Virus record (IMG/VR): IMGVR_UViG_3300044675_003531
Span: 1-52,773 of that record
DNA: 52,773 nt
Strand: one strand, 5' to 3'
Source of the DNA: a virus
Taxonomy: Duplodnaviria > Caudoviricetes
The position numbers were made by a program, and so were the translations under genes. The notes under the pieces were generated by a model. It was not told the origin of the DNA. It was given only the letters and a program-made list of their open reading frames with translations, and did no database searches. This document shows positions 18,416 through 44,130 of the stretch, piece after piece. Position 1 is the stretch's first letter. Each line of letters begins with the position of its first letter.

Positions 18416-18417
18416 AC

Positions 18418-18451: not shown

Positions 18452-18684
18452 TATTCTCCGTCCTCGGTCCTGAACCGGATGCCTTGGTCCAGTAGTTCCT
18501 TGGCTTCATATACGCTCTTGGCTCTCAGTGCTTTAAACGCCCGGTACAACGCGTCGTCCAGAGTTCGCTTATTGATGCCGAGGTCCTCTGCGGCCAAACC
18601 TCGATGCCCAACCTCAGCAACTTTGTTGATAATGAGTCGCTGGTAGTTGCTCACCTTGCCGATACCCGTCAATGTCTTTGCCAT
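18451..18684 (-). CDS. Small HTH protein (LuxR/sigma region 4-like)
   Basis: AAEDLGINKRTLDDALYRAFKAL HTH pattern; GGAGAG RBS before the ATG at 18684. Confidence 0.6.
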   Translation of the reverse strand: MAKTLTGIGKVSNYQRLIINKVAEVGHRGLAAEDLGINKRTLDDALYRAFKALRAKSVYEAKELLDQGIRFRTEDGE

Positions 18685-18685
18685 G

Positions 18686-19201: not shown

Positions 19202-19203
19202 CG

Positions 19204-20025: not shown

Positions 20026-20028
20026 GCG

Positions 20029-21214: not shown

Positions 21215-21824
21215 TCTCCTTCTCCAACTGTTGCAGGACGGCCTCGTACTCACTTGCAGGCACGTCGTACAGGGCCTTGGTGGCCTCTGTCAGATTCTCC
21301 ACCGTTCGCTCTGCGTTGTTGGTCAGCAGTGAGAACACCTCCTTGATGCGGGCACTGTCAGCATCCGGTTCGTGATGCTTGACCGCCGCACCAAACGCAA
21401 CGCCGGACCCCTTGATGTCAAGGACCTGCGGGCGTGGTGGGGTGGCACGCTTGAGTTCCACCGGAGCATCCACGATGCGCGGGTTGGCCACGCCATCGAC
21501 GACCTCGTCGAATTCGGGAGCGAACTGGGTTCCGTAGCCCAAGATACCCAAGGCGCGACCGATGGCCCCGGTCTCAGCCTTCTCCAAGTAGTCTGCGAAC
21601 CCTTTCGCATCCTCCATCTTGGTGCCTTCAGCAACGACCCTGCCTGTCGCATCGGTGATGGTTGCCTTGACGACGGCATACCTCTTCTCGATGCTGTGTT
21701 CGACAATCTGCGTGCTGATACCCCAGTCTGGATGTTCCTGTCGGAACCAGACCAGCCGCCACTTAACCTCGAGGTAGTCCTTACCCTTGAGGCTCATGAG
21801 TTTTTCGTTCGGATTGAACGCCAT
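21198..21824 (-). CDS. Single-strand annealing protein (Rad52/Sak-like)
   Basis: KGKDYLEVKWRLVWFR...VKATI...EKAETGAIGRALGILGYG motifs. Confidence 0.7.
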   Translation of the reverse strand: MAFNPNEKLMSLKGKDYLEVKWRLVWFRQEHPDWGISTQIVEHSIEKRYAVVKATITDATGRVVAEGTKMEDAKGFADYLEKAETGAIGRALGILGYGTQFAPEFDEVVDGVANPRIVDAPVELKRATPPRPQVLDIKGSGVAFGAAVKHHEPDADSARIKEVFSLLTNNAERTVENLTEATKALYDVPASEYEAVLQQLEKENGNAN

Positions 21825-21873
21825 ATCGATTCTCCTTCAAACGGTATGACCCAGCCCTTGCGGGCCGGGTCGT

Positions 21874-21884
21874 CCAGTGTATCA
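21874..21884 (-). promoter_or_regulatory. Extended -10 promoter (TGATACACTGG)
   Basis: TGn-TACACT; the same motif recurs at 24269, 25951 and 28139; followed by a 5'-UTR hairpin and RBS. Confidence 0.55.
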
Positions 21885-22586
21885 CTCGCTACTAAGTCTC
21901 GCGAGGAAGTCCTCCTCTGCGTCCTGTCGGTGCGCAGGGTTCATGTCTACGATGCCCATCAGCGGGCAGAGTTTCCGGTCCACGTACAGGACGGGATACT
22001 CCGCAGCCAGCCGCAGGATGCAGTGCGCCTCAATGATGCAGTCGCCGACCAGCCGCTCGACATCGTGCCCGAGTTCCAGTAGGTCCTCAATCACCCCGTT
22101 GATGCTGCTGCCAGCAACCGGGACCGTGAGGTCGGTGTTGGGGATAGGCCGCTCGATGATGCCTGTGTCTGGGTCACGGGCGATGTAGAGCCATCCGTTG
22201 CGGACAGGTGCAGGCAGGCCGTTCGGAAACGCTAGTGCGTTCGTTGGGCTATGCGTTGAACACTCGAGTGCGACGACCTTGTTGCCGTTGTAGCGGATGC
22301 ACCGCCACGACTCAATCAGTTCGTAGACAGAGATGCCTTCGATGTTCAGGTCGTTGAGGTCCACCGCCGTGTCCAGTTTCCCGGATTCTTTCATGCGCTG
22401 GATGTCAGCGCGGAACCCCTCCGGACTGTCTGCCACGATGATGTAGACCCACGGGCCGACACGCTCGGTGATGCATCCGCCCGGGCTGTTCTTCGGCTTG
22501 CCGATGTAGACCTTGTCGGTGGCCGACTGGCTGAACACATAGTCCCAGCAGTCCACTTCGAGTTCAGGTACGTTGATTGATGCCAT
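21882..22586 (-). CDS. Hypothetical protein
   Basis: 234-aa ORF in a tightly packed operon; GGAGG RBS. Confidence 0.6.
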   Translation of the reverse strand: MASINVPELEVDCWDYVFSQSATDKVYIGKPKNSPGGCITERVGPWVYIIVADSPEGFRADIQRMKESGKLDTAVDLNDLNIEGISVYELIESWRCIRYNGNKVVALECSTHSPTNALAFPNGLPAPVRNGWLYIARDPDTGIIERPIPNTDLTVPVAGSSINGVIEDLLELGHDVERLVGDCIIEAHCILRLAAEYPVLYVDRKLCPLMGIVDMNPAHRQDAEEDFLARLSSE

Positions 22587-22980
22587 GCCAAACCTCCATC
22601 TGTTGCAGAACTTTGTCGATGCGGTCCACTCGGCTCTGCCTCCCGAGTGTCGCCTCCGCTCGCCGAACCTCGTGCAGTGCCTCTGCCACCGTTCGGACGA
22701 TAGTTGTGATGTGTGCGTCGGCCAGCGACTGCTGGACCGGGGTGACCGCCGTCTTAGGTCCCTTGAGTTCGAGGCCCACGGCCATGCCGAACCAGTCAGG
22801 GTGATGGACGTAGATGTCCGGCAGGCCGGGAGTGTTGCCCTGCCATCCGGTGGCGTACGTCTTGGCCCCGCAGGCTCGGCAGGTGACCTTGCTCCTACTC
22901 TTCCCGCTCTCCATCGCTACATAGCCAAGGGAAGCGATGGCGGTTGTTATCGCCTTCTGTAGTTCCGCCTCCGGTTTCAT
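22564..22980 (-). CDS. VRR-NUC (PD-(D/E)XK) nuclease
   Basis: EAELQKAI...PGLPDI...GLELKGPKTAVTPVQ, with a CxxC insert. Confidence 0.8.
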   Translation of the reverse strand: MKPEAELQKAITTAIASLGYVAMESGKSRSKVTCRACGAKTYATGWQGNTPGLPDIYVHHPDWFGMAVGLELKGPKTAVTPVQQSLADAHITTIVRTVAEALHEVRRAEATLGRQSRVDRIDKVLQQMEVWHGINQRT

Positions 22981-23597
22981 CCTTCGCAAGGACGTGCCTC
23001 ATCACCAGTATCACCGCCAACAACAGGCTCACGAACCCCGCCAGCCTTCGCACGTTTTGCTTCACCGTGTACCTCCCGCCATAAGTATTTCGAGATGTAT
23101 GACGGCCATCCCGTGCCGGATTGTTGGACCGCTCGGGACCATTGCGAGAACGTAGAAGACCGCAGGCACAGGCTGAACAGCCTGCTGTGCAGTAGGTCGG
23201 TGTATGCCAGCCGATAGGCAGGCAGGGCATCCTGCGACACGTCAGGCAGGCGGGCCTCCGAGAGTTCGGCCTGCGTGTGCGTCCGTCGGTACAAGTACTT
23301 GGTCAGTGCGCCGTCCTCCCATTCCGCGTGCATCATAACGATGCGGGGCATGGTGCCGTTCATGATTGTGCAGATGGCTCCCGGGCCACGGCGATGCGCC
23401 CGGCTTAGGTAGTACATCACCTGCGTGACACGGGCGGTTCCGATGCCTCGGACCACGAGGTCCTTGGCTGCTGCCATCGCGGAGTCCAGCGCAGCATCCG
23501 CACCGGAACGGTCAGGAGACCAGACGCTGTGCGTCCGGCCTCCCATGGTTGTCTCCGTCTGCCATACACGGCTAAGGCCGCCGCTGTAGCCCTTCAC
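22977..23597 (-). CDS. Hypothetical protein
   Basis: 206-aa ORF with 4-bp overlaps with both neighbours. Confidence 0.55.
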   Translation of the reverse strand: MKGYSGGLSRVWQTETTMGGRTHSVWSPDRSGADAALDSAMAAAKDLVVRGIGTARVTQVMYYLSRAHRRGPGAICTIMNGTMPRIVMMHAEWEDGALTKYLYRRTHTQAELSEARLPDVSQDALPAYRLAYTDLLHSRLFSLCLRSSTFSQWSRAVQQSGTGWPSYISKYLWREVHGEAKRAKAGGVREPVVGGDTGDEARPCEG

Positions 23598-23839
23598 AGG
23601 CCGAGTTCCCGCAGGTGCTGGGACACAACCCTGTAGTTGCGGTCGCCTTCCCGGGTTTCGATGTCAGCGCGGATGGCCTTCTTCTGGTCAGCCCACGCCT
23701 GCTCTTCAGCCACCAGCCTCTTGCGGAGCGCGTTGACTTCGTTCTTCTGCATCACGCCGATGGTGAAGAATGCGATACCGGCGAGGCATATGATGATGCC
23801 TATTTGTGCGTCTGGGTTGTTGATGAATTTCTTAAGCAT
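23594..23839 (-). CDS. Small membrane-anchored protein
   Basis: IGIIICLAGIAFFTIGVM transmembrane segment followed by a coiled coil. Confidence 0.55.
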   Translation of the reverse strand: MLKKFINNPDAQIGIIICLAGIAFFTIGVMQKNEVNALRKRLVAEEQAWADQKKAIRADIETREGDRNYRVVSQHLRELGL

Positions 23840-24251
23840 TTTCGTGTTCCTTGTCTCTCCACGAGTCCAGTGAAATGTCAGCCTCTGGCTCCTCTGAAAC
23901 ATCCTCGCTGACGGCCGCCTCAATCCTTGCGATGAACGATGGGATGTCCACCGCCCCTGTGTGGAACGCGTCGTAGGTTCCTTCCCAGAGCGTCTCCGTC
24001 AGGATAGCCTCGGTATTGTCCTCCGCCCATGACGGGGAGAACGGGTCGCCCGAGTTGTTGTGGAGCCGTTCGACCTTGGCGGTGAAGGTTGCCCGGCCGT
24101 ACTGGACCCGGGCGGTAAACGTCACCCGCAACCGTGAGCCGTTGCAGACGCAGTGGGCATGGCGCGTGGCTTCGGTGAGCGTGGTGAACCGGACGATGCT
24201 GGATGCGACCGCCGCCGAGTTGGCGATGTCGCAGATGTCATTTACTTGCAT
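23832..24251 (-). CDS. Hypothetical protein
   Basis: GAGGAG RBS; lies downstream of the promoter motif. Confidence 0.6.
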   Translation of the reverse strand: MQVNDICDIANSAAVASSIVRFTTLTEATRHAHCVCNGSRLRVTFTARVQYGRATFTAKVERLHNNSGDPFSPSWAEDNTEAILTETLWEGTYDAFHTGAVDIPSFIARIEAAVSEDVSEEPEADISLDSWRDKEHENA

Positions 24252-24268
24252 GATGTCAAACTCCTCTG

Positions 24269-24282
24269 TGGCCCAGTGTATC
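24269..24282 (-). promoter_or_regulatory. Promoter motif GATACACTGGGCCA
   Basis: Repeated -10-like element. Confidence 0.5.
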
Positions 24283-24305
24283 GCACTGGCACGGTGTGGC
24301 CCAGC

Positions 24306-24695
24306 CTATCGGCCGGGGATTGGTTTCAAAGTAACCGAGGAACCTTGCTCGGTCCGTCCGTCTGAAATGTTTACAGAGCAGAAATTTCCGGGGTGATTGT
24401 CGGACACGTCAAAGATGCGGACGGTGTGCTTGCCAACCGTGTAGGTGTGGAAGTGTGAATCAAAGCGGTCCGTCCCGATGAACGTAACATTCTCGGACTT
24501 GGTGAGGTCGAGGCCGACGAGGTCCGCGCCTTGGCGCAGGTAGTGCAGCCGGTATGCCTTGCGGGCGATACGGGAGGCCGTAGCGGCCACGTTGCGGCCC
24601 GCTGGGGTCATAGGTGTCTGCGGTTCGGACTTCAGCCAACCGTACTGGGACGTGCTGTTGTAGCGGATAACAACGCCAATGGTTCTGAATTTCAT
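24306..24695 (-). CDS. Hypothetical early protein
   Basis: GGAGA RBS before the ATG at 24695. Confidence 0.6.
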   Translation of the reverse strand: MKFRTIGVVIRYNSTSQYGWLKSEPQTPMTPAGRNVAATASRIARKAYRLHYLRQGADLVGLDLTKSENVTFIGTDRFDSHFHTYTVGKHTVRIFDVSDNHPGNFCSVNISDGRTEQGSSVTLKPIPGR

Positions 24696-24754
24696 AGGTA
24701 TCTCCGTGAGGGTAAAAGTGTCCCGGTGTTTCGCCCCGCCGGGAAGGCACGGGG

Positions 24755-25156
24755 TCACAGGATGCGGGTCAGGGACCGGCAACCGACAACGTTCCCAGCG
24801 TCGTCCCGGATAAGGTCCCCGGGAACCAGCACATCCATCCGGCCCCGGATGCTGGGGTGGCTGGCCACCACGCTGGACACGATGTAGGCGACCTGCCCGC
24901 TGTGTGACTGGGCGGTTTCAGGCAGGGTGCATTCCTCTGTCTGTCGGACCCACTCGCCATCCTTGGACAGGATGCCGTCTGTCACAACGCGCTCGGCCTT
25001 GGAGCCGACCACGAGGACGTGCTGGCCGCAGACGAACAGGGACCCCACCGGCTCGGAAGCGGTGCGGACCCGGGCGATGCCGACGCTCGGGATGACGATG
25101 TCGGACGGGCCGATGATGGTGATGCTGTGAGGGGTCAGGTTGATAAGTGTTGTCAT
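24755..25156 (-). CDS. Conserved phage hypothetical protein (NLTPH...YIVS...RDDAGNVVGC family)
   Basis: Recognisable motif set of a widespread uncharacterised phage family; AAGGAG RBS. Confidence 0.7.
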   Translation of the reverse strand: MTTLINLTPHSITIIGPSDIVIPSVGIARVRTASEPVGSLFVCGQHVLVVGSKAERVVTDGILSKDGEWVRQTEECTLPETAQSHSGQVAYIVSSVVASHPSIRGRMDVLVPGDLIRDDAGNVVGCRSLTRIL

Positions 25157-25200
25157 GTTCATACTCCTTGAATAGCCGCAGGGCGGCAGTGTGTGACGGT

Positions 25201-25395
25201 TCAGCGGGCTTGTTCGTAACCGTCGAACCAGCGGCCCAGACGCTTGGTGCGGGCCTTACCTGCGGCCTTGGTGCAGGTGCTGGAAGATGTCTCCGGGTCA
25301 GAGCAGTGGGCCTTGGCCTGCTCGAGGGTCAGCCCGGTGGCGATGGTGCGGCGGCGGATGTTGGCCGACTCGTAGAAGCGGATGATGTGATACAT
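25201..25395 (-). CDS. Small conserved phage protein (GLTLEQAKAHCSDPETSS...WFDGY)
   Basis: Motif recalled from small phage early proteins; GGAGA RBS. Confidence 0.7.
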   Translation of the reverse strand: MYHIIRFYESANIRRRTIATGLTLEQAKAHCSDPETSSSTCTKAAGKARTKRLGRWFDGYEQAR

Positions 25396-25448
25396 GGTGA
25401 AATCTCCAAAGTGTCTGGCCCGGGCGGTGAACCCGGGCCGGGGTGATG

Positions 25449-25886
25449 TCAAACCTCGATGTCGTACTTGCGGCCAGCGTCCGCGACAGCCTTTTGCCAT
25501 ATCGGCTCGAACCACGCCTCAAGGCCCGTCCGGTCAGCCTCGGTGTCGGTGCGTGTGGACCAGTCAGATACCACGTCCGGGCCATCGTTCCCGTACACGA
25601 GGGATAGGGTCAGGAAGGTCATCGCGGTCCTGCCCTCCGGGTTGTCTACGGTTGCGAATGTCTCGGCCGGGAAGGAGAACATCAAATCCTGCACCTCAGT
25701 GTCGTGCATCCGGGCCTTGACCTCGTACCAGTCAGCCACCTTGCGGAACGAGTCCTCTTCGTCGCGGAGGGAAATCTTTGCGCGCTTGGCAAGTGCGGCG
25801 TATACAATCTGCCGCACCACAAAGTGTTCGGCGCGGACGCGGGTCTGGATGTCTGGGTGAAGGCCCAGAAGTTCGGAAGATGTCAT
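25449..25886 (-). CDS. Hypothetical early protein (LVYGNDGPDVVSDW motif)
   Basis: GGAGAC RBS; the motif recurs in small phage proteins. Confidence 0.65.
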   Translation of the reverse strand: MTSSELLGLHPDIQTRVRAEHFVVRQIVYAALAKRAKISLRDEEDSFRKVADWYEVKARMHDTEVQDLMFSFPAETFATVDNPEGRTAMTFLTLSLVYGNDGPDVVSDWSTRTDTEADRTGLEAWFEPIWQKAVADAGRKYDIEV

Positions 25887-25950
25887 GGTGTAAGTCTCCG
25901 GCCCGTCAGGGCTGGGGGTCAGTGCCCCGGCCGTGAGGCCGAGGCGGGAG

Positions 25951-25971
25951 CAACGATGGCCCAGTGTATCA
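25951..25971 (-). promoter_or_regulatory. Extended -10 promoter TGATACACTGGGCCATCGTTG
   Basis: Near-identical to 28139-28159. Confidence 0.6.
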
Positions 25972-26391
25972 CGACCGGGCGGGGCTATCAGGTGCCTCAA
26001 GCATCCCGTACCAGCCATCTGGGTCCAGAGCGGCCTGCACGGCGGCGACGTGTCCCTCGGCTACCATCCGGGCGTGCGCCCCCCAGTGTGGAGCGGACAG
26101 GACCGCGAGGGCATATGGCATCGTGTCGGCCGCGTACCATTGGCGGGCCAGCGCGTCGTAGTGTTCGACGACATCCTCCTGCACGGGGTCCAGCACGCCG
26201 TCGGGGATATCGCACGGAGCGTCAAACTCGGTCAGTTCGTCGTTCTGGCATACCAGCGTCTTGGGGCCGATGGCCACAACGATGCGGTCGGGCTTGGTCG
26301 TCGTGAGTATGAGCCACACGTCGTAGTTGGTTGTGAGGGCGGCCATGCGTTCGGCCTGTGCGACGTAGGGGGTGCGGCGGGTTATCCACAT
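25969..26391 (-). CDS. Hypothetical early protein
   Basis: AAGGAGAC RBS before the ATG at 26391. Confidence 0.6.
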   Translation of the reverse strand: MWITRRTPYVAQAERMAALTTNYDVWLILTTTKPDRIVVAIGPKTLVCQNDELTEFDAPCDIPDGVLDPVQEDVVEHYDALARQWYAADTMPYALAVLSAPHWGAHARMVAEGHVAAVQAALDPDGWYGMLEAPDSPARS

Positions 26392-26447
26392 GATGGTTGT
26401 CTCCTTGGGGGTCAGTGCCCCCGGGGTGTCCGGGGGCTGGGGGGGTG

Positions 26448-26783
26448 TCAGAGTGCGGCGGCCTTGACGCGGATGTCGAGGCGGGCGGATGTCAGGAACG
26501 GCGGCAGGCCGGACGTTCCGGCGGCGAACCCGCGAGTGGTCCGCGCCCAGTTGTTCAGATACTCCCACGCCGCGAACTCGGACCGCACCGCGAGGTACCG
26601 GCGGGCACCGCTTGCGCGGTTCAGGGTCAGGGCGTAGCGGCCATCCGGCAGGGCGGCGGCCTCGGCCCATGTCCACTCGTTGCGGCGGGTGTGGAACACG
26701 GCCACGCCGATGCGATGCTGGCCAGCGGCCGTGAAGGACTCGTCTGTCTGGAACAGCCGGGCGGGCTTGCGGTAGGTTGTCAT
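26448..26783 (-). CDS. Hypothetical early protein
   Basis: AAGGAGAC RBS. Confidence 0.65.
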   Translation of the reverse strand: MTTYRKPARLFQTDESFTAAGQHRIGVAVFHTRRNEWTWAEAAALPDGRYALTLNRASGARRYLAVRSEFAAWEYLNNWARTTRGFAAGTSGLPPFLTSARLDIRVKAAAL

Positions 26784-26918
26784 GTCAGGTGTCTCCTTGG
26801 GGCGTTGCCCCGGGGTATGTGGCCCGCGTTCGGTCGGGCCGTTCGTGATGCAGCAGCACGGGGCTGCGGGGCTGCGGGGCGGGGAACTGGCATCGCCAGC
26901 CCCCAGTGCAGGCCGGGG

Positions 26919-28076
26919 TCAGGCCGCCTCTTGGGCGACCTCCTCCCACTTTGTCGGGCGGCTGAAGAATCCGAACCCGGGTTCCTTGGGTTCAACCGTG
27001 GCGGTGAACCGGACCGGGGTGCCAGCCTCGGGTGCAACCGCCGAACTTGGCAGGGAACCGTACAGGCGGAACCCGTCGCATTGCACCAGCACCTTGGTCG
27101 TCCAGCCCCACTGGGTCTCGATGGACTTCGTGTTCAGGACCTGCCCGGTGATGGCACGGCGGCCATCCTGCGGGGTGACCAGCGGCGCGTCGGTCTTGGG
27201 GGCCGAGGTGGCCTTGCGCCATGCCCCGACAAAGTAGGCCACGCCCCGGCGGTCCAGCCAGCCATCGGCCTCCCAGCGTTCCATGATGCCCGGGGCATCG
27301 GCCATGGCCTCGCGGATGCTGGCCAGCACGGACCAGTCAGCGGCAGGCAGGGCCGACTCCAGCAGTTGGTCCGCGACCTTGGCCGCCTCCCAGACGATGC
27401 GCCATGTGGCGTTGGAGTTGGGGTTGCCATCGGGACCCTTGCTGGCCACGTAGGGCTGGCCATCCATCGATGCCAGCGCACGCAGGACCGTTTCGAGGCG
27501 GACCCACTTTGGCTCGTACCATCCGCCGCCGCCGCACTCGTCAGGGTCCCCGGTGCGGGACATGATGGCCGTTGCCTCGGCGAGGCTGGCCAGCGCAGAG
27601 CGCAGGGCGTTGGGGACATACTTGGCAACGCACGCGCCGCCGACTTGCAGGGCGTTGCCCATGCGGTCCCCGAGTATGACCGTGGTGTAGCGGGTGCGGT
27701 TCAAGCCGCAGGACTCGCAGGCGGTGTGGGTGTCCGGGAGCATGGCCATGATGGCGGCGGCCTCTGCGGCCGTGGTGCTAGGGCGGACCCACGACACCAA
27801 GGTGGCCTCGCGCTCGCCGAGGTACCGCCACCCAGCGGTCAGGTCGATGTCGGGTATGCCGACGGTGACGGGGACCACGGCCACGGTCCAGCGGGCGACG
27901 GGGACCTGCTCGAACCGGCCGCGTGCGCCCTCCTGCATCTCATAACGGGTGACGCGCAGGGGTTGCTCTTCACCGACGGTGATGGTCAGGCCGGGGATGC
28001 CTGCGGCGGCGCGGCGGAGCAGGGCCTGCACGCGGGTCAAGTTGTCGGGGGTGACTTTGTAGGTTGTCTCGGTCAT
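26919..28076 (-). CDS. Zn-binding (CESC...QVGGAC) plus C-terminal OB-fold-like protein
   Basis: Cys cluster; C-terminal beta-rich GRRAITGQVL...QWG...GTPVRFTATV...FSRPTK. Confidence 0.65.
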   Translation of the reverse strand: MTETTYKVTPDNLTRVQALLRRAAAGIPGLTITVGEEQPLRVTRYEMQEGARGRFEQVPVARWTVAVVPVTVGIPDIDLTAGWRYLGEREATLVSWVRPSTTAAEAAAIMAMLPDTHTACESCGLNRTRYTTVILGDRMGNALQVGGACVAKYVPNALRSALASLAEATAIMSRTGDPDECGGGGWYEPKWVRLETVLRALASMDGQPYVASKGPDGNPNSNATWRIVWEAAKVADQLLESALPAADWSVLASIREAMADAPGIMERWEADGWLDRRGVAYFVGAWRKATSAPKTDAPLVTPQDGRRAITGQVLNTKSIETQWGWTTKVLVQCDGFRLYGSLPSSAVAPEAGTPVRFTATVEPKEPGFGFFSRPTKWEEVAQEAA

Positions 28077-28138
28077 GGTCAGTGTCTCGGGGCTTGCGGC
28101 CCGGGGGGTCAGTGCCCCAGCAGAGCCGGGGCGTGGTG

Positions 28139-28159
28139 CAACGATGGCCCAGTCTACCA
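28139..28159 (-). promoter_or_regulatory. Extended -10 promoter TGGTAGACTGGGCCATCGTTG
   Basis: TGn-TAGACT with a shared downstream sequence. Confidence 0.6.
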
Positions 28160-28190
28160 TCAGGCGGACCGGGCTGGCCAGTTCGGCGGG

Positions 28191-28436
28191 TCAGACTTGC
28201 TCTGGGTCCCAGACCTCGCGGCATCCGGGGTTCGCACATCGGAGTTCGCCGGTTTGATGCCCGTCGGTTCCGACGGCGTGCGGCACTGGGCCGTCGCAAG
28301 CGCAGAACGGGCAGGGCCAGCCCCAGATGCGCTGGGAGGCGGTGCGGCGGCTCTTGGGTGCGGAGTGGGCCGCGACGCAGGCGGCGGTGTAGGTGCGATA
28401 GGTGCGGCCGGTGGCCGAACGGCGGGTTTCAAGCAT
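28191..28436 (-). CDS. Small zinc-finger protein
   Basis: CPFC...CANPGC; GAGGAG RBS. Confidence 0.6.
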   Translation of the reverse strand: MLETRRSATGRTYRTYTAACVAAHSAPKSRRTASQRIWGWPCPFCACDGPVPHAVGTDGHQTGELRCANPGCREVWDPEQV

Positions 28437-28492
28437 GAGAATTCTCCTCGGGAAGAAAGGCCCCGGCGGGCGGCCGGGGCAGGGTCAGCGGG

Positions 28493-29023
28493 TCAGAACT
28501 TGCGGCGGGCCGAGAAGCCCAGCGATGCGCCGCGATACTTGGGAGCCAGCGCGGTGTCGGTCAGCCCCGGCGGCAGGACGGGCCGCTGTTCGAGTTCGCC
28601 GGTCAGCGACATGGCCCCGACATCGTGGCGGTAGCCATCGCGGTACCGGGGGGCCAGCCGAACGGTCAGCCGATACTCGAGTTGGACCCCGTCAGGGGTG
28701 GCCGAGGTCCACTCCAACTGCCAGTGGATGGACCGGAGCGGGAGGGTGCTGGTTTCGATGGGCCCGTCGCCGGATGCGACGCTGGCGGCGGCCTTGGCGG
28801 TCATGTCGTCGATGCTCTCGGGTTGCGCCCAGATGACTCCGGAGTATCCGGCCCGCTTGGGTGTCACGCCCTCCGGCAGGGCGACCGTCGCGAAGAAGTG
28901 CCGGGCCTCGGTCATGGCCAGCAGGATGCGCTCTGGGGTCAGCAGGCGGCGCAGAACGGTCAGAGCGGACGCAGGTGCGGCCACGCCGCCAAACTTGCTA
29001 TCGTGGGTGTCGATGTCGAACAT
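28493..29023 (-). CDS. Hypothetical early protein
   Basis: GGAGAC RBS within the repeat element. Confidence 0.65.
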   Translation of the reverse strand: MFDIDTHDSKFGGVAAPASALTVLRRLLTPERILLAMTEARHFFATVALPEGVTPKRAGYSGVIWAQPESIDDMTAKAAASVASGDGPIETSTLPLRSIHWQLEWTSATPDGVQLEYRLTVRLAPRYRDGYRHDVGAMSLTGELEQRPVLPPGLTDTALAPKYRGASLGFSARRKF

Positions 29024-29119
29024 AGTGGGTTGTCTCCAGCCCGGTCAGGGGCGGGGGTCAGTGCCCCGGCAGGACCGGGGCGGGGGCGGCGGGAACTGGC
29101 ATCGGCCAGCGGGCGGGGC

Positions 29120-29452
29120 CTACTCGGCCACGATGTCGTCAAGCAGGACCGTGTCGGTCCCGCCGTCAGGGTTGGTGGCAGCCCGGGGGGCGACCAGAGC
29201 ATCGGCAATGCCACGGGCCACGGTGGACCGGACCAGCGGATGCAGCCGGTATCCCTCGAGAATGGCCTGCCCGTGGTACCGGGAACCGTCAAGGGCCGAG
29301 ATGGCCACGCGGCCGAACCGGCCATCAAGGGGGCCGTGCGGGTCCCGCAGGTTCTGATTGACGGCCTTGGTCACGAGGCCAGCAACGCGGGAGGCATCAG
29401 GGGTGCGGCCGGTCAGGTCGCCCCGGTCGTTGTGAACATAGAACATCGGCAT
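29120..29452 (-). CDS. Hypothetical early protein
   Basis: GGAGAC RBS before the ATG at 29452. Confidence 0.6.
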   Translation of the reverse strand: MPMFYVHNDRGDLTGRTPDASRVAGLVTKAVNQNLRDPHGPLDGRFGRVAISALDGSRYHGQAILEGYRLHPLVRSTVARGIADALVAPRAATNPDGGTDTVLLDDIVAE

Positions 29453-29525
29453 GGTGCGTGTCTCCAGCCCCCGGCGGGGGCGGTGGGGTAGGTGCCCGGG
29501 GCTGGCCGGGCGGGGTTGACTGATA

Positions 29526-29590
29526 GGGCTTGCCATCATCAGATGCTGGGGGGCCACCCCAGACACGACCCCCGGGCGGGGGTTTCGGCA
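29526..29590 (-). ncRNA. Type II hammerhead ribozyme (HH1)
   Basis: UGCC-GAAA-CCCCC(GCCC)GGGGG-UC^GUGUCUGGGG(UGGCC)CCCCAGCAU-CUGAUGA-U-GGCA-AGCCC; predicted cleavage between 29567 and 29566. Confidence 0.85.
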
Positions 29591-29592
29591 GG

Positions 29593-29823
29593 TCAGCGAT
29601 AGAAGCGGGTCAGGGCCTCGGTCGTGGCCTTGGAACTGGCATCGGCCCGGGTGGAGAGTTCGGAGCCGATGTAGGTCAGGACCCAGACGGTCGCGACCAG
29701 CGAACCGTACCAGCCCCAGTGCCCCTTGACGTGGAGCAGGATGCTGACCGTGGTGAGCAGGTGAACGATGGCCACCGTCAGGGCGGCGTGCAGAGTGTTG
29801 TCGGAAATACGGGTGATGCGCAT
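29593..29823 (-). CDS. Small two-TM membrane protein
   Basis: Two hydrophobic helices; repeat element upstream. Confidence 0.6.
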   Translation of the reverse strand: MRITRISDNTLHAALTVAIVHLLTTVSILLHVKGHWGWYGSLVATVWVLTYIGSELSTRADASSKATTEALTRFYR

Positions 29824-29901
29824 GGCAGATGTCTCGGGGCCGGATGGCCCGGGGTCAGTGCCCCGGGGTGAACCGGGGCGGGAGGGGCGAGGTGCGGCAG
29901 G

Positions 29902-30219
29902 TCAGGCCTGCGGGGTGGAGGTGTCCACGATGGCCCAGCCCTCGGCGGCGGCCGCGTCGAATGAGCGGACGGCTGCCACCACGGTGCGATACAGGGCGCG
30001 GGGGTGGAGTTGGACCGCCGAGAGGGTGATGGCGGCGAGGTCCTGCCCGCCGTGGCGGAGGGTCAGCGTCACCGGCGGGAGGGCCGGGCCGGTCCAGCGG
30101 ACGGTGGAGGAGCGCAAGACCTGATTGACGCGGAACGCAACCGCGCTCGGCAAGTTTTGGGTGACATAGGATGTTGCGCCGTCGAAGGACGCGATGCGGA
30201 CGGTGAACGGGTTCAGCAT
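29902..30219 (-). CDS. Hypothetical early protein
   Basis: GGAGACTCCGCATC-ATG start. Confidence 0.6.
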   Translation of the reverse strand: MLNPFTVRIASFDGATSYVTQNLPSAVAFRVNQVLRSSTVRWTGPALPPVTLTLRHGGQDLAAITLSAVQLHPRALYRTVVAAVRSFDAAAAEGWAIVDTSTPQA

Positions 30220-30289
30220 GATGCGGAGTCTCCGGCCCCAGAGGGGCGGGGGGTCAGTGCCCGGGGCTGGCCGGGCGGGTGGACTGATA

Positions 30290-30356
30290 GGGCTTGCCAT
30301 CGTCAGGCATCAAGGAGCCACCTTGACACGACCCCGGGGCGGCCGGGGTTTCGGCA
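30290..30356 (-). ncRNA. Type II hammerhead ribozyme (HH2)
   Basis: UGCC-GAAA-CCCCGG(CCGCC)CCGGGG-UC^GUGUCAAGG(UGGCU)CCUUGAUGC-CUGACGA-U-GGCA-AGCC; loop I GGCU can pair with the 3' AGCC; predicted cleavage between 30330 and 30329. Confidence 0.9.
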
Positions 30357-30372
30357 GGTCAGCGGGTGCGGC

Positions 30373-30714
30373 CTACTTGTTGGCCCAGAGGGTGGCCAGC
30401 AGGGCGCGGACGACACGGTCAGGGTCAGGGCTGGCCATCAGGGTGTCGGTGTCGATGTCCACCGTGCCAAGGAGGGTGGCACCCTGCCAGAGGCTAATGG
30501 ATGTCGCGGTGCCCGGGATGGGCTCGGCACCGTAGCGCAGGATGTTGGTCAGGCGGGTGATGGTCCGGAGGCCAACCCGGCTGAAGATGTCAGCCAGACC
30601 GGGCCGGGCGGTCAGCCAGACTTCGTAGCCTTGCGGGAGGTGGCGGCGGTTGGACCAAGTCCAGCGGCCGGTGGATGCTTCGAGGTGTGCGAATTCGCGG
30701 GTCAGGTTTTGCAT
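30373..30714 (-). CDS. Hypothetical early protein
   Basis: GGAGACTCCGCATC-ATG start, identical to that of the next gene. Confidence 0.6.
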   Translation of the reverse strand: MQNLTREFAHLEASTGRWTWSNRRHLPQGYEVWLTARPGLADIFSRVGLRTITRLTNILRYGAEPIPGTATSISLWQGATLLGTVDIDTDTLMASPDPDRVVRALLATLWANK

Positions 30715-30781
30715 GATGCGGAGTCTCCAGAGGGGGATGGCCCGGGGTGAACCGGGCCGGGGTTGTCGATGCGGGGAGGGC

Positions 30782-30994
30782 TTAGAAGTCGCCGCCAGCC
30801 GAGATGACCCGCTCACCGGGGGCGGCGATGGTGTAGAGGGTTGTCGGTACACCGTAGGTGGCGAGGTAGTCTCGCTCAGCACGGGCCTTGACTACCTCGG
30901 CGGTCGCCCTATTGTGGCACTTGACGACGACCAGCGGGTAGCCGCTTGGCGAGAGGACTGCAACGGCGTAGGTTGGAAGGGTGATGGTTGACAT
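30782..30994 (-). CDS. Hypothetical protein (first gene of the leftward unit)
   Basis: GAGAC-type RBS before the ATG at 30994. Confidence 0.55.
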   Translation of the reverse strand: MSTITLPTYAVAVLSPSGYPLVVVKCHNRATAEVVKARAERDYLATYGVPTTLYTIAAPGERVISAGGDF

Positions 30995-31029
30995 GGTTGT
31001 CGGTTGTCTCAGGGCACGAGGGCCCGGGG

Positions 31030-31395
31030 TCAGGGCCAGTGGACTAGACTGGCAGGGTGTAGGTTTCGCGGTGCTATCCGCCGGGGCCGGGTCAGGGCTC
31101 ATCAGGTGGCCAGCATCAGGCCACGACATGGTTTCCAGCAGGTCCCGTGGAGGTGTTGATATCACCTATCTGCTGGTACACCCCGCCACACGGTGGAGGG
31201 TGTCTCTTATGGTGCGGGTCGTTGCATCGATTGAGGGGGGCCGAACGGCCAAGGTGCCCGGGATGGGCTAGGGAGAGGATGCTACCGCGTCTAGGATAAA
31301 GTGCCGAACCTGCCGGACCCGCGAGGGGTCCCAACCGCGACCCAGTGGACTTGGCCACCGGACACAGGAACACTCTACTCGGACCTGGTGGCCCA
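31030..31395 (-). ncRNA. Large structured leader RNA containing a hammerhead-like core (HH3)
   Basis: GUC^GUGGCC(UGAUGCU)GGCCAC-CUGAUGA-GC...GCGG(AUAGCA)CCGC-GAAAC at 31127-31063, plus several additional helices. Confidence 0.5.
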
Positions 31396-31401
31396 GTGCA
31401 A

Positions 31402-31880
31402 GCATAGTTGTTGACACTCATTGACACTCATTGACAGTTATTCACACTTGAGTGCGCTGTTGATAGTTATTGACACTCACATTTATTTTGTTTAGTGATG
31501 TGAAGTATTTCAGAGGGCTGTGGAACCGATGCGGGACCGGGGCGGCAGTGTCCGGGACCGATGGCAGGGCGGCAGGATGCAGAGGGGAGTTTTTGAGGCA
31601 TAGTAGGAATCGCACACGTCACACGCATGACGCGTCACACACACGCACGTACACACGGGCACACACGCGCACGCGTTGGGATAGAACGCACGCACACGTA
31701 CGAGCAGGCGCAACGCGCCTGCGAGTATGCGAGCGCGTAGCGCGAGCAGGCTCCGGGGCTGCCACCAAGCAGAGGTGACAAGAATACAAGGGGGCCGTTT
31801 CACACCAAGATGAGGTGACAGCGTCGCAGGGCTATGTTGCAACAAGTATCAACAAGTATCAACGAGTGTCAACAACTATC
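31402..31880. repeat. Inverted arrays of 10-bp repeats flanking an alternating purine-pyrimidine tract
   Basis: TTGACACTCA-type tandem repeats at 31411-31450 and 31470; inverted copies at 31841-31880; exact 16-bp inverted repeat at 31404-19 / 31864-79. Confidence 0.85.
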
Positions 31881-32094
31881 AGAACAGAGGGGCAGTTATT
31901 ACCCGTACGATAGCAACCCCGCTGTATGGGCCCTGTGTGGCCTCACAGCCCTACCCGTCAGAGTCAGCCCACGCCCGGCTGGGGACCCCCTTTTATAATA
32001 GGGAGAACAACTGTTTGAGGACTCCAAATCGCAGCGCACCAAGGCGAGGTGACACCCCATTGGCAAGCCCCCGCCACCCCAAGGCGAGGTGACA
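31765..32094 (+). repeat. Four CCAAGnnGAGGTGACA sites in two pairs, each pair 40 bp apart
   Basis: Copies start at 31765, 31805, 32039 and 32079. Confidence 0.85.
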
Positions 32095-32230: not shown

Positions 32231-32617
32231 ATGAAACCTACGGTAAGAGAGTTGTTTGAGACGGGTAAGTACACGTTCTATATGAGCGGTGTTGAACTGC
32301 CTAGTGAGAGTGTCGAGCGTTTGTTTGATACGGCTGTCACGTCGCTTGTGTTGACCGACACGGTCATTCTGTCTGTTAGTGTTATGGGTGGCAGCCCACT
32401 GTCGTTTGATATCCCTTATGAACTGATGCTTGGCGGGACAGTGTTCTGCCGCAGCGCGATTCCGGGTGAGTGGGAGTTTAGATGGCGTAAGACGTTTGGT
32501 GTATTGGAGGAGTGGTTCACTCTGACCAATGAGTGGAACGTGGTGGATGTCATGCAGTTGCCGCTTGGTGCGCGTTGTACGTGGGCTGTAGAGCGTATAC
32601 CGCTGGTGGGTAAGTGA
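32231..32617 (+). CDS. Hypothetical protein
   Basis: Strong RBS; 128-aa ORF. Confidence 0.7.
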   Translation: MKPTVRELFETGKYTFYMSGVELPSESVERLFDTAVTSLVLTDTVILSVSVMGGSPLSFDIPYELMLGGTVFCRSAIPGEWEFRWRKTFGVLEEWFTLTNEWNVVDVMQLPLGARCTWAVERIPLVGK

Positions 32618-33021
32618 TAGTTCTTGCGGGGCACCGCACTGCATTCCTGAACGCTAACAACGAGTGGGAAGATAGCGATGGCAATGTACTTATCCGTCTT
32701 ACTACGCTTGGGGATGTCATCCGTAAGCGTCGGTTGGAGTTAGGTATTTCCCAGCGTGATGTGGCTGCTATGATTACGGGGAGTAGGACATCGTTCTGCT
32801 CTCCTCAGACTCTCAACAATATCGAGCATAACGACCGTACGGGCGAACAGTATTGGGCATCAATCTCCAAGAAGTTAGATATCCCTTTGTGCGTGCTTAT
32901 GTACTACGGATTGTTGGCACCGGCTGGATATGTGCATCCATATGAGTATCCATATGAGGTTATTGAGAAAGCATTTGACAAAATGCGCGACAGTCTCTTC
33001 GACCACATTTACACACTTTGA
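32614..33021 (+). CDS. XRE-family HTH regulator
   Basis: LGDVIRKRRLELGISQRDVAAMI...SPQTLNNIEHN. Confidence 0.8.
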   Translation: MIVLAGHRTAFLNANNEWEDSDGNVLIRLTTLGDVIRKRRLELGISQRDVAAMITGSRTSFCSPQTLNNIEHNDRTGEQYWASISKKLDIPLCVLMYYGLLAPAGYVHPYEYPYEVIEKAFDKMRDSLFDHIYTL

Positions 33022-33065
33022 TGTATAATTTGTCTGTTCGATATTACTAACAACTAACCAAATGG

Positions 33066-33100
33066 ACCCTCGCAGTCAGCCACACTGCGGGGGTTTTGTT
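33066..33100 (+). terminator. Intrinsic terminator
   Basis: ACCCTCGCAGT-loop-ACTGCGGGGGT followed by TTTGTT. Confidence 0.7.
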
Positions 33101-33122
33101 ATACTAGGGCTGAGGTACTGCT

Positions 33123-33401
33123 ATGCCATATGTAACCAAACCTAGACCCTATAAGAAGGAATACGAGCAACAGGTCGCCAGAGGGGAACATCCTGCGCGT
33201 ATGGAACGCCAGAAGGCTCGTAGGGCCATGGATGCCAAAGGTGTTGAACGTACAGGCAAAGACATAGACCACAAGAAACCATTGAGTAAGGGTGGGACCA
33301 ACACGGCTAGTAACTTGCGAGTAGTGAAGCCTAGTACTAATCGGTCATTTGCGCGTAACAGTGACGGGTCGGTAAAGAAAAATGGAACTAAAAAGTCGTA
33401 A
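33123..33401 (+). CDS. Small HNH endonuclease-like protein
   Basis: DIDHKKPLSKGGTNTASNLRVVKPSTNRS. Confidence 0.8.
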   Translation: MPYVTKPRPYKKEYEQQVARGEHPARMERQKARRAMDAKGVERTGKDIDHKKPLSKGGTNTASNLRVVKPSTNRSFARNSDGSVKKNGTKKS

Positions 33402-33681
33402 ATCTGCCGAGGACGTAGCCAACTGGATACTCGATAGCGAGTACGAAGAGGTTGTGCTAATTGATGGTTTAGACGATGCTTTCATTGGATGTACCTCTGC
33501 TGGGGTTGCCATCTACAACATTGACCGATGCGCGGAAATCGTGGCCGAGGACAACAATATGTCCATTGAAGAGGCTATTGAGTACGTCGAATATAACGTC
33601 GTAGGGGCCTATGTAGGGCCGCAGACACCGTTGTTCATTGAGGTTATGAATGAGTACAGCAGTCAAGAAGAATCCGGCTAA
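33382..33681 (+). CDS. Conserved phage hypothetical protein
   Basis: DGLDDAFIG...EEAIEYVEYNVVGAYVGPQTP motif. Confidence 0.7.
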   Translation: MELKSRKSAEDVANWILDSEYEEVVLIDGLDDAFIGCTSAGVAIYNIDRCAEIVAEDNNMSIEEAIEYVEYNVVGAYVGPQTPLFIEVMNEYSSQEESG

Positions 33682-34036
33682 ATGGAAGGCTATTGTTGCT
33701 TCAGTCAAGGCTAGTACCAAGGGTGGAGACCCCGGTGAATGGTCGGCTCGCAAAGCACAACTAGCAACACAGAAGTACAAGGCCTCTGGTGGTGGATATG
33801 AAGGCCCAAAGAAGGCCGATAACAGTCTGTCTAAGTGGTCTGACCAGAAGTGGCGCACTAGTGATGGGAAACCCAGCGAAGGCAAGAAACGCTACCTGCC
33901 TGACAAGGCTTGGAGCGGTTTAAGTACCGGTGAAAAGGCTGCTACTAACAAGGCTAAAGCAGCAGGTAACGCGGCTGGTAAACAGTTTGTGGCCCAACCC
34001 AAAAAGATTGCGGCTAAAACAGCACGCTATAGATAA
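33650..34036 (+). CDS. Basic conserved phage protein (DUF5872-like)
   Basis: GGDPGEWSARKAQ...GGGY...WSDQKWRT...RYLPDKAW. Confidence 0.7.
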   Translation: MSTAVKKNPAKWKAIVASVKASTKGGDPGEWSARKAQLATQKYKASGGGYEGPKKADNSLSKWSDQKWRTSDGKPSEGKKRYLPDKAWSGLSTGEKAATNKAKAAGNAAGKQFVAQPKKIAAKTARYR

Positions 34037-34038
34037 AT

Positions 34039-34071
34039 AAAAACCCCTCTAGCCATGCAAAACTAGAGGGG
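34039..34071. terminator. Terminator between convergent genes
   Basis: CCCCTCTAG...CTAGAGGGG stem with an A-tract (U-tract on the - strand). Confidence 0.7.
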
Positions 34072-34104
34072 CTCGGCTGACAGGAGAATCAGTCGGGATT
34101 CGCA

Positions 34105-34443
34105 CTAAGATAGGACAGAGGAGGAGTCTTGGTGCATTTCTACCGTACCACAATCTTTCAATAATGTGTCTTTTAGACGATGGAATATTTCATCGGCTAT
34201 ACCGTAGAACGCGCCCATATCCATCTCTAGTCCTACAACTACAATCTGCCGCATGATGTCGATGCCTACCGACCTACGGCCGCGCTCAATGTTGGTCATG
34301 TGAGTACGATTGACGTTGCTTTTATAGGCTAGTCTCTCTTGACTGATATTCTTGTCTGTGCGGCACTTTACGATAGCCCAACCCACTGCAACGCAGTACG
34401 GTGAGGCAATATCTTTCAATGCTTTACGTTGACCCTTTACCAT
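34105..34443 (-). CDS. XRE-family HTH regulator
   Basis: ISQERLAYKSNVNRTHMTNIERGRRSVGI. Confidence 0.8.
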   Translation of the reverse strand: MVKGQRKALKDIASPYCVAVGWAIVKCRTDKNISQERLAYKSNVNRTHMTNIERGRRSVGIDIMRQIVVVGLEMDMGAFYGIADEIFHRLKDTLLKDCGTVEMHQDSSSVLS

Positions 34444-34445
34444 GC

Positions 34446-34715
34446 TTATTCCCCTAAAAAGGCTGGTTTGTTGCGCAGGTTAAACTTCCAGTTGTCGCTA
34501 CGTTGAGTCATCATTGTTATAAGTTCTGCTTCAGTCATCTGTCCAAATCGCCAAGGTGATTTAGACTTATCCTCACGCTCACTAATCAAGACCTGCAACG
34601 CGCCAGAAGGTGTACGCTGCGTCATAACACAACACTGTTCACACTCTGAATAGAGAGACTTGCCAGCATCTAAGTGCTGGATAGCCTCTACGAGATTTAC
34701 AAACGGCTCTGTCAT
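34446..34715 (-). CDS. Hypothetical protein
   Basis: Packed operon with overlapping start/stop. Confidence 0.55.
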   Translation of the reverse strand: MTEPFVNLVEAIQHLDAGKSLYSECEQCCVMTQRTPSGALQVLISEREDKSKSPWRFGQMTEAELITMMTQRSDNWKFNLRNKPAFLGE

Positions 34716-35050
34716 TTGGTGCGTGCCGCAATATGCGTATCAATCTCAACAAAGAGATGTTTGAGCCATGCACCATCACCAAGTCCAAGAAGGATTGGAG
34801 TCTTTCCCCAGAGCCAGCCAACACGCTCGACAAAGACACCAACCACAATGTTCTCAGTCATAGGGCTTTCATGACGCAGACGTACTGGTACGCCGTCACG
34901 CTCGAGCAATACTTCTTGTGTTGCATCGGCCGTCGCTCTCCACTGAACCAACTGCTTATGGAGTTTCTGTTCGGCCGTCATACCGACCGGTGCTTGCTCT
35001 ACTACTTCTACTACAGGGCTTACTACAGCCTTACGTCTTGCCATTTGCAT
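34712..35050 (-). CDS. Hypothetical protein
   Basis: Packed operon; GAGGA RBS. Confidence 0.55.
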   Translation of the reverse strand: MQMARRKAVVSPVVEVVEQAPVGMTAEQKLHKQLVQWRATADATQEVLLERDGVPVRLRHESPMTENIVVGVFVERVGWLWGKTPILLGLGDGAWLKHLFVEIDTHIAARTK

Positions 35051-35360
35051 ATCCTCTCATGCCACGCCATTCTTTGGAGTGGAATTCATTAGTAACAATA
35101 TCGGCTTCTTCACCGGTCAAAATGCGCCATTCGAAAAATGTAGGTGCAGACTTTGCTGTGACCATGATGAACCAAGGGTTTGTTTCAGTTGGATGCTTCA
35201 ACCGTGTATGAACACCGGAGATATTCAACTTATACTTCAACTCGCGGCATAACTTCGGCATTGCTACTTCATCAGCATCTAGCACCATTTTTTTACGGGC
35301 TATCTCTCTGTCCTCAATACCGCTGCGTAACTTGGTTACGACTTCAACAACACAACCCAT
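35031..35360 (-). CDS. Hypothetical protein
   Basis: AGGAGG RBS. Confidence 0.6.
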   Translation of the reverse strand: MGCVVEVVTKLRSGIEDREIARKKMVLDADEVAMPKLCRELKYKLNISGVHTRLKHPTETNPWFIMVTAKSAPTFFEWRILTGEEADIVTNEFHSKEWRGMRGYANGKT

Positions 35361-35369
35361 TCTGGCCTC

Positions 35370-35930
35370 CTAAAAACCTATCTGAACGAATCCGCCAAAC
35401 TTACCAAATTCACTCCAGTGCCGAACCTTGCGATAGTATCCATCACCATCTCGTTCTACTTCTGCGGACATTTCTGGCTCAGGATTAGTGTTGCCTTCAA
35501 TGGTAATCAAACCCCAGTCATGAACTTCTTCAATGACTCCAATATGTCCAATCCTGCCAAGCGCAGAGAAATAAAACAATGCTAAATCACCGGGTAATAA
35601 AACACGGTCAATTCCGCGTGCATCTAAAACACGTATCGATGAAATACTAACCCATGCGTTGTTAGCCTTAGCCCAGCGAGAATAGTCTGGTGTCCAACCG
35701 GTGCGTGGAAATGTCTTGTCATAGACCTGTCCAAGGGCCGTAGCGGCTTGTTTCAACCGAAACCGCACTACTGCTGCACACCATGGAGAACCGACGGGTA
35801 GCGGGGGAATACACGATTCTTGATAAGCACGTACAGCATCACCAGCATTGTTGCCAACCTCGGTGACACCAATGTTAGCGCGTGCAAATTCTAGTGCTTT
35901 GAGGGCAATAGGTCTATCTTCATTTCTCAT
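35370..35930 (-). CDS. CHAP-domain cell-wall hydrolase (endolysin)
   Basis: PWCAA catalytic Cys, GHIGV catalytic His, TIEGNT. Confidence 0.85.
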   Translation of the reverse strand: MRNEDRPIALKALEFARANIGVTEVGNNAGDAVRAYQESCIPPLPVGSPWCAAVVRFRLKQAATALGQVYDKTFPRTGWTPDYSRWAKANNAWVSISSIRVLDARGIDRVLLPGDLALFYFSALGRIGHIGVIEEVHDWGLITIEGNTNPEPEMSAEVERDGDGYYRKVRHWSEFGKFGGFVQIGF

Positions 35931-44112: not shown

Positions 44113-44130
44113 TAGGGAGCAATAATCAAA

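Follow-up and report, generated by a model that had tools for sequence, protein, structure and literature searches.

Hammerhead ribozymes of the type II class, the pseudoknot between their loop I and 3′ tail, and their association with prophages were described by Perreault et al. in 2011 (PMC3088659). According to that report, multiple hammerheads flank single genes or short gene blocks, for which a role in operon processing was proposed; three clusters cleave in vitro and one in vivo in E. coli (PMC3088659). The same source gives a pseudoknot of approximately 4 bp, formed between loop I and a tail 3′ of stem II, for most type II members (PMC3088659). Cleavage in vivo has also been reported, by cyPhyRNA-seq, for three type II hammerheads of Desulfovibrio vulgaris (PMC8782182). 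Reviews of 2017 and 2019 characterized hammerhead-flanked open reading frames (ORFs) as small and non-conserved, and the role of bacterial and phage hammerheads is treated as an open question in reviews (PMC6765202, PMC6155905). Here we analyze the viral record IMGVR_UViG_3300044675_003531 (Caudoviricetes), all 52,773 nucleotides of which are referred to below as the window, where a preliminary description had proposed two type II hammerheads within a repeated intergenic module. The alignments presented below allow both predicted elements to be identified securely as type II hammerheads. We consider it probable that they are functional and occupy spacers of an early operon on the minus strand, where they would cleave the polycistronic mRNA into hairpin-capped pieces.

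The arrangement is one already described for other phages and prophages. As in the prophage clusters reported by Perreault et al., of which the triple around ardA in Agrobacterium tumefaciens is an example, the ribozymes have type II topology and the pseudoknot and occupy intergenic positions on the coding strand; there, too, several copies flank a single small gene, or a few such genes, without known function in a phage context, with a proposed role in transcript processing (PMC3088659). Unlike those clusters as reported, the present pair belongs to a free lake-water viral contig rather than to a prophage in a cultured bacterium and is known from sequence alone; its stem II has 4 bp and is accompanied by an extra U, which brings the scores under the Rfam cut-off, and both ribozymes are joined to copies of a repeated cassette specific to the phage (PMC3088659). 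The short stem II with its extra U and the cassette fusion are minor differences. The hammerheads reported from D. vulgaris are of the same type, lie beside phage-derived genes and cleave in bacterial cells, but they are single loci at separate positions, whereas here a pair flanks a gene block (PMC8782182).

Both copies, designated A and B, are complete and are located on the minus strand. Their positions and those of the predicted cuts are as follows (sequences are given as RNA, with the stems III and I in closed form on either side of the cut):

30286 to 30359, minus strand: hammerhead A, UGCC-GAAA-C CCCGG/CCGGG G-UC / cut / GUGUCAAGG-UGGCU-CCUUGAUGC-CUGACGA-U-GGCA-AGCC

29522 to 29593, minus strand: hammerhead B, UGCC-GAAA-C CCCC/GGGG G-UC / cut / GUG(U)CUGGGG-UGGCC-CCCCAGCAU-CUGAUGA-U-GGCA-AGCC

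30330/30329, minus strand: predicted cleavage site A, 3′ of C17 (30330), counted from GUC and based on the chemistry of the family

29567/29566, minus strand: predicted cleavage site B, 3′ of C17 (29567), counted from GUC and based on the chemistry of the family

In each copy the elements follow one another in the order stem II strand UGCC, GAAA, closed stem III, GUC, closed stem I, CUGA(C/U)GA, the extra U, GGCA and AGCC, and loop I is UGGCU in A and UGGCC in B. Covariance-model alignments of both copies give the permutation typical of type II, with stems I and III closed by loops and the 4-bp stem II open. When aligned to the core columns of the model, C3 U4 G5 A6 N7 G8 A9, G12 A13 A14, A15.1-U16.1 and C17 are intact in A and B; pair 10.1-11.1 is G-C in both, after one extra U following A9, and pair 1.1-2.1 is G-C in A. 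In A the pseudoknot between loop I and the 3′ tail consists of 4 bp (GGCU/AGCC). The minimum free energy (MFE) fold of the isolated 77-nt RNA of copy A is exactly the three-way junction of the type II permutation. In stem I seven of the nine pairs differ between the copies in the model alignments, three of them on both sides and four on one side via a wobble, and none is broken. The two elements, their anatomy with the extra U after A9 and the open UGCC/GGCA stem II, and the compensatory differences between their stems had all been part of the preliminary description and were borne out here. A recount also returned the cleavage positions it had predicted and the same middle fragment of 763 nt, made up of a 110-nt leader, a gene of 105 amino acids, a 78-nt spacer, a gene of 76 amino acids and a 26-nt trailer.

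The Rfam model RF02276 (Hammerhead_II) matches both copies across positions 1-66 of its 66, with 32.6 bits for A and 33.3 bits for B; the corresponding E-values are 1.6e-4 and 1.1e-4 in a 1-kb search and 1.9e-6 and 1.3e-6 per record. A second covariance model, R2, was derived from 79 related sequences of other viral contigs and did not include the copies of the window. With R2, A scored 64.7 bits (E 1.1e-15) and B 58.1 bits (E 7.1e-14). A search of all 52,773 bases on both strands found no third hammerhead, the next-best R2 match being at 14 bits.

The relatives were collected by pattern searches. A tight pattern derived from A and B gave eight further instances in three other viral contigs, and a looser one, in which only core and loop letters were fixed, gave at least 117 stretches. 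The family set consists of those 81 of 128 unique pattern matches, among the matches listed, that passed a pairing filter (five of six inner stem I pairs and all four proximal stem III pairs); by our own calculation random sequence would pass it at a rate of about 6 in 10,000. In the alignment of these 81 sequences 92% of cells are paired, versus 66% in shuffles and 30-43% with the partners slid, a percentage that the filter makes partly circular for stems I and III, stem II being unfiltered. The covariation score is 0.646 versus 0.155, a value of 0.646 being reached by none of 500 shuffles, and double changes are seen in 15 of 23 pairs of this alignment, pre-filtered as it is for stems I and III. 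The middle pair of stem II (6-86) is UA in 41 sequences, CG in 33, GC in 3, AU in 2 and UG in 2, and is never unpaired. Pseudoknot pairs 64-92, 65-91 and 66-90 are paired in every family member, and pair 67-89 is UA in 57, CG in 2 and other in 22. The nucleotide inserted between A9 and G10.1, which lowers the Rfam score, is present in 37 of the 81 members and is a U in 34 of these.

These data suggest how the two elements may act. The ribozymes would fold during transcription of the operon, stems III and I first; the 4-bp stem II and the pseudoknot between loop I and the tail would then close the core, and the RNA would cut itself 3′ of GUC. The upstream piece would keep its stop codon, and its new end would be the stem III hairpin, carrying a 2′,3′-cyclic phosphate and leaving a 3′ untranslated region of 43 nt at A and 26 nt at B. 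In the downstream piece the 5′-OH would sit immediately on the stem I hairpin, with the next start codon 110-114 nt away. The cleavage products would be expected to separate because only the 4-bp stem II links them. Each transcript would in this way yield three independent mRNAs, one of them the 763-nt piece with two genes, and the stability of the mRNA and the translation of neighboring cistrons would be uncoupled. We infer this uncoupling, which would follow from rapid release of the products and hairpin-protected ends, from the layout of the ribozymes and from what is generally known of RNA decay in bacteria. The early polycistronic mRNA of phage T7 is processed by RNase III. There, too, structured intergenic sites serve to cut an early phage transcript into gene-sized mRNAs with hairpin ends; the difference is that in T7 a host protein cuts double-stranded sites, whereas here the RNA would cut itself and leave 5′-OH and cyclic-phosphate ends.

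The genes and other features around the two ribozymes are listed in the direction of the minus strand, with the GC content at third codon positions (GC3) where it applies:

31845 to 31872, minus strand: promoter-like site TTGACA-16-GATACT, sigma-70-like, 10 of 12 consensus positions (consensus match only)

30705 to 30776: further cassette copy

30373 to 30714, minus strand: upstream gene, 113 amino acids; GC3 0.83; stop codon TAG at 30375-30373, 16 nt before hammerhead A

30220 to 30285, minus strand: cassette fused 3′ of hammerhead A, with hairpin, GGGCACTGACCCC, hairpin, GGAGAC and then the ATG at 30219

29902 to 30219, minus strand: first inner gene, 105 amino acids, orphan; GC3 0.90; ATG at 30219

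29824 to 29901, minus strand: ribozyme-less cassette between the inner genes, beginning with the same TGACCTGCCG as the ribozyme-bearing spacers

29593 to 29823, minus strand: second inner gene, 76 amino acids; GC3 0.87; stop codon TGA at 29595-29593, 2 nt before hammerhead B

29453 to 29521, minus strand: cassette fused 3′ of hammerhead B, with variant GGGCACCTACCCC; the ATG at 29452 is next

29120 to 29452, minus strand: downstream gene, 110 amino acids, orphan; GC3 0.81; ORF 29120-29566 read from the ATG at 29452

28460 to 28480, minus strand: terminator-like hairpin and U-rich tail, after a gene of 176 amino acids (consensus match only)

The preliminary description had placed the ribozymes on the coding strand, and this agrees with the GC3 of 0.81-0.90 of the minus-strand genes, with the common direction of the genes that match PHROG families and with the antisense pattern of the plus-strand ORFs. 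The latter overlap the minus-strand genes and have a GC content at first codon positions of approximately 0.82; they are regarded as spurious because their codon-position GC mirrors that of the minus-strand genes. A start 2 nt after a stop codon had also been claimed, which is correct for B and does not apply to A. Since a single promoter-like site and a single terminator-like site bracket the gene run, one transcript spanning both ribozymes is plausible; a consensus scan found no further promoter match on the minus strand between these two sites. Cutting of a polycistronic early transcript is the natural reading because the ribozymes lie on the coding strand with a promoter-like site upstream and a terminator-like site downstream.

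A motif search found eight copies of the intergenic cassette, all on the minus strand between 25884 and 31078, two of which carry a ribozyme. Two hairpins, the upstream one GC-rich and the downstream one variable in sequence, flank the 13-mer GGGCACTGACCCC and are followed by GAGAC, 7-12 nt and a start codon. Six of the eight copies have the 13-mer without a change, and in seven the start lies 7-8 nt after GAGAC. The cassette may be a promoter, a site bound by a protein or a processing site. The shared repeat of about 110 nt consists of a ribozyme and one copy of the cassette, as expected from the module proposed earlier. RNAalifold applied to the eight cassettes found only an invariant GGGG/CCCC hairpin and no useful covariation. 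As a repeated element the cassette was not found in other viral contigs: the search for GGGCACTGACCCC..GAGAC gave five single matches, none of them multi-copy, which we treat as chance. Just upstream of two cassettes, at 25947-25971 and 28135-28159, there is a 25-nt repeat, 88% identical, which reads TG(A/G)TA(C/G)ACTGGGCCATCGTTGC on the minus strand and by eye resembles an extended -10 promoter (TGnTAnAnT). Closely spaced decamers similar to TTGACACTCA are present at 31409-31479, between divergent gene runs and beside repressor-like genes, and look like operators or overlapping promoters.

The proteins of 113, 105 and 76 amino acids have no match in Pfam or PHROGs; the smallest of them is likely to be a membrane protein, judging by eye from its hydrophobic stretches. 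Searches of viral contigs for relatives of the 113- and 105-residue proteins gave 24 and 47 pattern matches, respectively, none of which was confirmed by tblastn. For the 105-residue protein the best score in the ESM Atlas was 0.76, which is at noise level, and blastn of 28400-31500 against 50,697 phage records gave no match.

Arrays of this kind are common in IMG/VR. Among 78 family hammerheads 61 start no more than 5 nt from a stop codon of a same-strand ORF or overlap it, compared with 246 of 3836 random positions taken in these loci, and the median distance from a hammerhead to the next start codon is 24 nt. Two or more copies are carried by 28 of the 100 loci searched, always on the same strand (28/28), the total by our own count being 167 matches. 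The densest same-strand array consists of 23 copies in 13 kb (record G001, 112 kb, positions 871-13,936); others have 9 copies in 6.5 kb (G002, 42,629-49,136) and 8 copies in 3.2 kb (G003, 32,336-35,542). In such arrays of 8-23 there is approximately one hammerhead per small gene, with a spacing of roughly 250-900 nt, and the copies are far more numerous than in the triple clusters described in 2011. This context supports a predicted role in operon punctuation. A count of hammerheads located inside ORFs was not used, as ORFs of 40 amino acids abound on both strands of GC-rich DNA.

The sequence is present in 24 listed sequencing runs, all of DNA or of unknown kind; 23 of these are labeled lake water metagenome and one (X24) metagenome only. 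Both ribozymes are covered by four lake-water DNA runs, and none of the 26 listed substitutions of a 1301-nt stretch lies inside them, which speaks for the ribozymes only marginally, given that about three would be expected by length. In the lake-water run X9 three contigs depart from the order of the window. One joins 29593 to 30374 and skips 29594-30373 (780 nt, comprising hammerhead A and both inner genes), another joins 29456 to 29828 and skips 29457-29827 (371 nt, comprising the 76-residue gene and hammerhead B), and the third joins 29882 to 29588, which places the ribozyme-less cassette after the 76-residue gene. Each joint is seen in a single short contig whose shorter side comprises 20-32 letters, at 85% likeness, and such joints often stem from repeats or other organisms. 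The spacer after the 110-residue gene (29021-29125, minus strand) has no ribozyme, and its lead-in TAGGCC..CCCGCTG is that of the spacer of hammerhead A (16/19). These data suggest, as a lead, that genes and ribozymes may be gained and lost at the ribozyme/cassette modules. The same spacer contains a faint echo of GAUGGCAAG, and a ribozyme may have been lost or gained there. Back-joints (30233 to 29862, with 12 letters between, and loose ends at 29882) were set aside as artefacts, since the mapped stretch stops before the cassette copy at 30705-30776.

A number of observations weigh against functional hammerheads in a polycistronic transcript, in addition to the partial circularity of the pairing percentage given above. 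A default Rfam scan of the window returned no matches, because the scores of both copies lie under the gathering cut-off of 37 bits; of the check by Rfam that had been proposed earlier, the full-length match was obtained and the threshold was not reached. The shortfall is due largely to a 2-nt insertion before stem II in the model alignment. Copy B has a G.U wobble at pair 1.1-2.1, which adjoins the core and the cleavage site, the sole case among the 81 aligned members, and one bulged nucleotide in stem I; its pseudoknot, claimed for both copies, is reduced to 3 bp (GGC/GCC) plus a C.A mismatch at the fourth position, so that in full form the claim holds for A only. In the MFE fold of the isolated 75-nt RNA of B stems I and III are present and stem II is replaced by an alternative hairpin. 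In contexts of 146 nt the MFE structure of both copies, calculated with a model that ignores the pseudoknot, pairs the conserved flank CUAUCAGUC with core letters, GACGAUGG or GAUGAUGG, and stem II is not formed. No RNA run is among the 24 listed runs that contain the sequence. Finally, a polycistronic transcript would not be required if the eight cassettes act as promoters. Copy B may be slower than copy A. The alternative hairpin between the core and CUAUCAGUC was considered as a switch and dropped, as it did not stand out from shuffled flanks (z of -0.95 and -1.3); such core/flank pairing is not a feature of the family (median z 0.27, with 2 of 79 below -2).

It might be argued that A and B are decayed or chance look-alikes that do not cleave, given their scores under the Rfam threshold, the sub-threshold RF02276 matches found at E ≤ 1 in 6 of 14 control genomes, and the G.U pair, bulge and weakened pseudoknot of B. 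Against this stand the R2 E-values (near 1e-15 and 7e-14), the presence of all core nucleotides, the seven stem I pairs that changed between the copies with none broken, and the fact that 37 of 81 relatives carry the same extra nucleotide that is costly in Rfam; we give this explanation hardly any weight. A role at the DNA level is a tentative possibility, though an unlikely one: the modules of about 110 bp and the eight cassettes would serve as recombination linkers for small early genes and the ribozymes would be passengers, active or not. The 780-nt and 371-nt skips in X9 and the transfer of the ribozyme-less cassette to a position after the 76-residue gene would fit such linkers, as would the lead-in that the ribozyme-less spacer after the 110-residue gene shares with hammerhead A, the identical start (TGACCTGCCG) of the spacer after the 105-residue gene, and the orphan nature of the genes involved. 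The slender basis of each joint, a single short contig, counts on the other side, and linkers leave the intact cores, the compensatory changes and the family-wide covariation unexplained. Linkers of this kind are compatible with self-cleavage of the transcript and not opposed to it.

The preliminary description had further suggested that the 763-nt RNA freed by the two cuts might be closed into a circular mRNA by RtcB, and a host RtcB-like ligase or the reverse reaction of the ribozyme could be envisaged for this. RtcB is suited to 5′-OH and 2′,3′-cyclic phosphate ends, so the chemistry of the predicted cut ends is right for it. The 3′ end of the fragment is the 5′ half of B (UGCC-GAAA-stem III-GUC) and its 5′ end the 3′ half of A (stem I-CUGACGA-UGGCA-AGCC); stem II being identical in A and B, these ends could rebuild a hybrid hammerhead nicked at the cut site. 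Eukaryotic retrozymes are reported to circularize in this manner (PMC4918200, PMC7229834). In retrozymes and viroid-like circular RNAs, as described in these sources, two same-strand hammerheads likewise bound a unit of a few hundred nt, and the cut ends can rebuild the ribozyme and serve as substrates of RNA ligases (PMC4918200, PMC7229834, PMC7761336). Those RNAs are described as type I or III, mostly non-coding, eukaryotic and retro-mobile or RNA-replicating, with circles detected (PMC4918200, PMC7229834, PMC7761336); here, in contrast, the ribozymes are of type II, the unit encodes two proteins in the operon of a DNA phage, and no circle is known. Perreault et al. reported that circular or spliced products were sought in comparable prophage clusters and none was detected (PMC3088659), and we found no report of hammerhead-derived circles from DNA phages in the literature. 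The only helix between the ends would be the 4-bp stem II, with the ends 763 nt apart, and no ligase, RtcB or cyclic phosphodiesterase family was found among the ORFs of the window scanned against Pfam or PHROGs. Arrays of 8-23 ribozymes, moreover, suggest general punctuation more than a single dedicated circle. The proposal of circularization by RtcB was for these reasons not upheld, and a circular product is in our view very unlikely. A variant of this idea, which we regard as very improbable, is that the stretch delimited by the two ribozymes, with a ribozyme, two cassettes and two genes in alternation, can be exchanged as a whole; the excised 763-nt RNA would form the hybrid hammerhead and then a circular two-gene mRNA, the circle or module recombination underlying the presence or absence of the block among lake-water relatives. 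It is hinted at because a single X9 contig skips exactly 29594-30373. Self-cleavage of the early transcript by A and B is the explanation we prefer.

The source of the record is probably a podovirus-like, temperate lake-water phage; it is called temperate because of two HTH_3 (helix-turn-helix) repressor-like genes at 32614-33021 and 34105-34443, just beyond the minus-strand region. The record is listed as linear and estimated to be 85% complete. The half with approximately 47% GC carries structural genes, including the terminase large subunit, a P22-like portal, SU10-type adaptors, an endolysin and an ORF of 5,539 amino acids, together with a weak match, under the Pfam cut-off, to a family of major capsid proteins. 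Between about 18.4 and 32 kb the GC content is 56-70%, with a peak of about 70% at 26-30 kb, and the genes are on the minus strand; one of them encodes a replication-initiator-like protein with a helix-turn-helix domain (19204-20025), several belong to PHROG families without known function, and many are orphans. The contrast in GC content between 18000-32000 and the rest suggests a mosaic origin or possibly an assembly chimera. The 5,539-residue ORF (1796-18415, plus strand) contains a P-loop kinase domain matching Pfam AAA_33 (E 1.8e-12, residues 2302-2452 of the piece starting at 9002) and the PHROG annotations 'ATPase' (7e-29) and 'polynucleotide kinase' (9e-14); its only other matches are DUF7178, just above the Pfam cut-off, and a weak one to phrog_3170 of unknown function. 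A 5′-OH kinase in a phage that would make 5′-OH RNA ends would merit attention.

Overall, the analysis adds two well-supported hammerheads, missed by the Rfam threshold, in an uncultured phage, and the comparison set indicates that type II hammerheads punctuate phage operons at large scale, as many as 23 being present in 13 kb. In the family the start of a copy nearly coincides with a stop codon, and cleavage in the type II arrangement would leave a hairpin on both new RNA ends. With two copies and clean predicted fragments, this phage would offer a simple system in which to ask whether cleavage sets the stability or translation of individual early genes.

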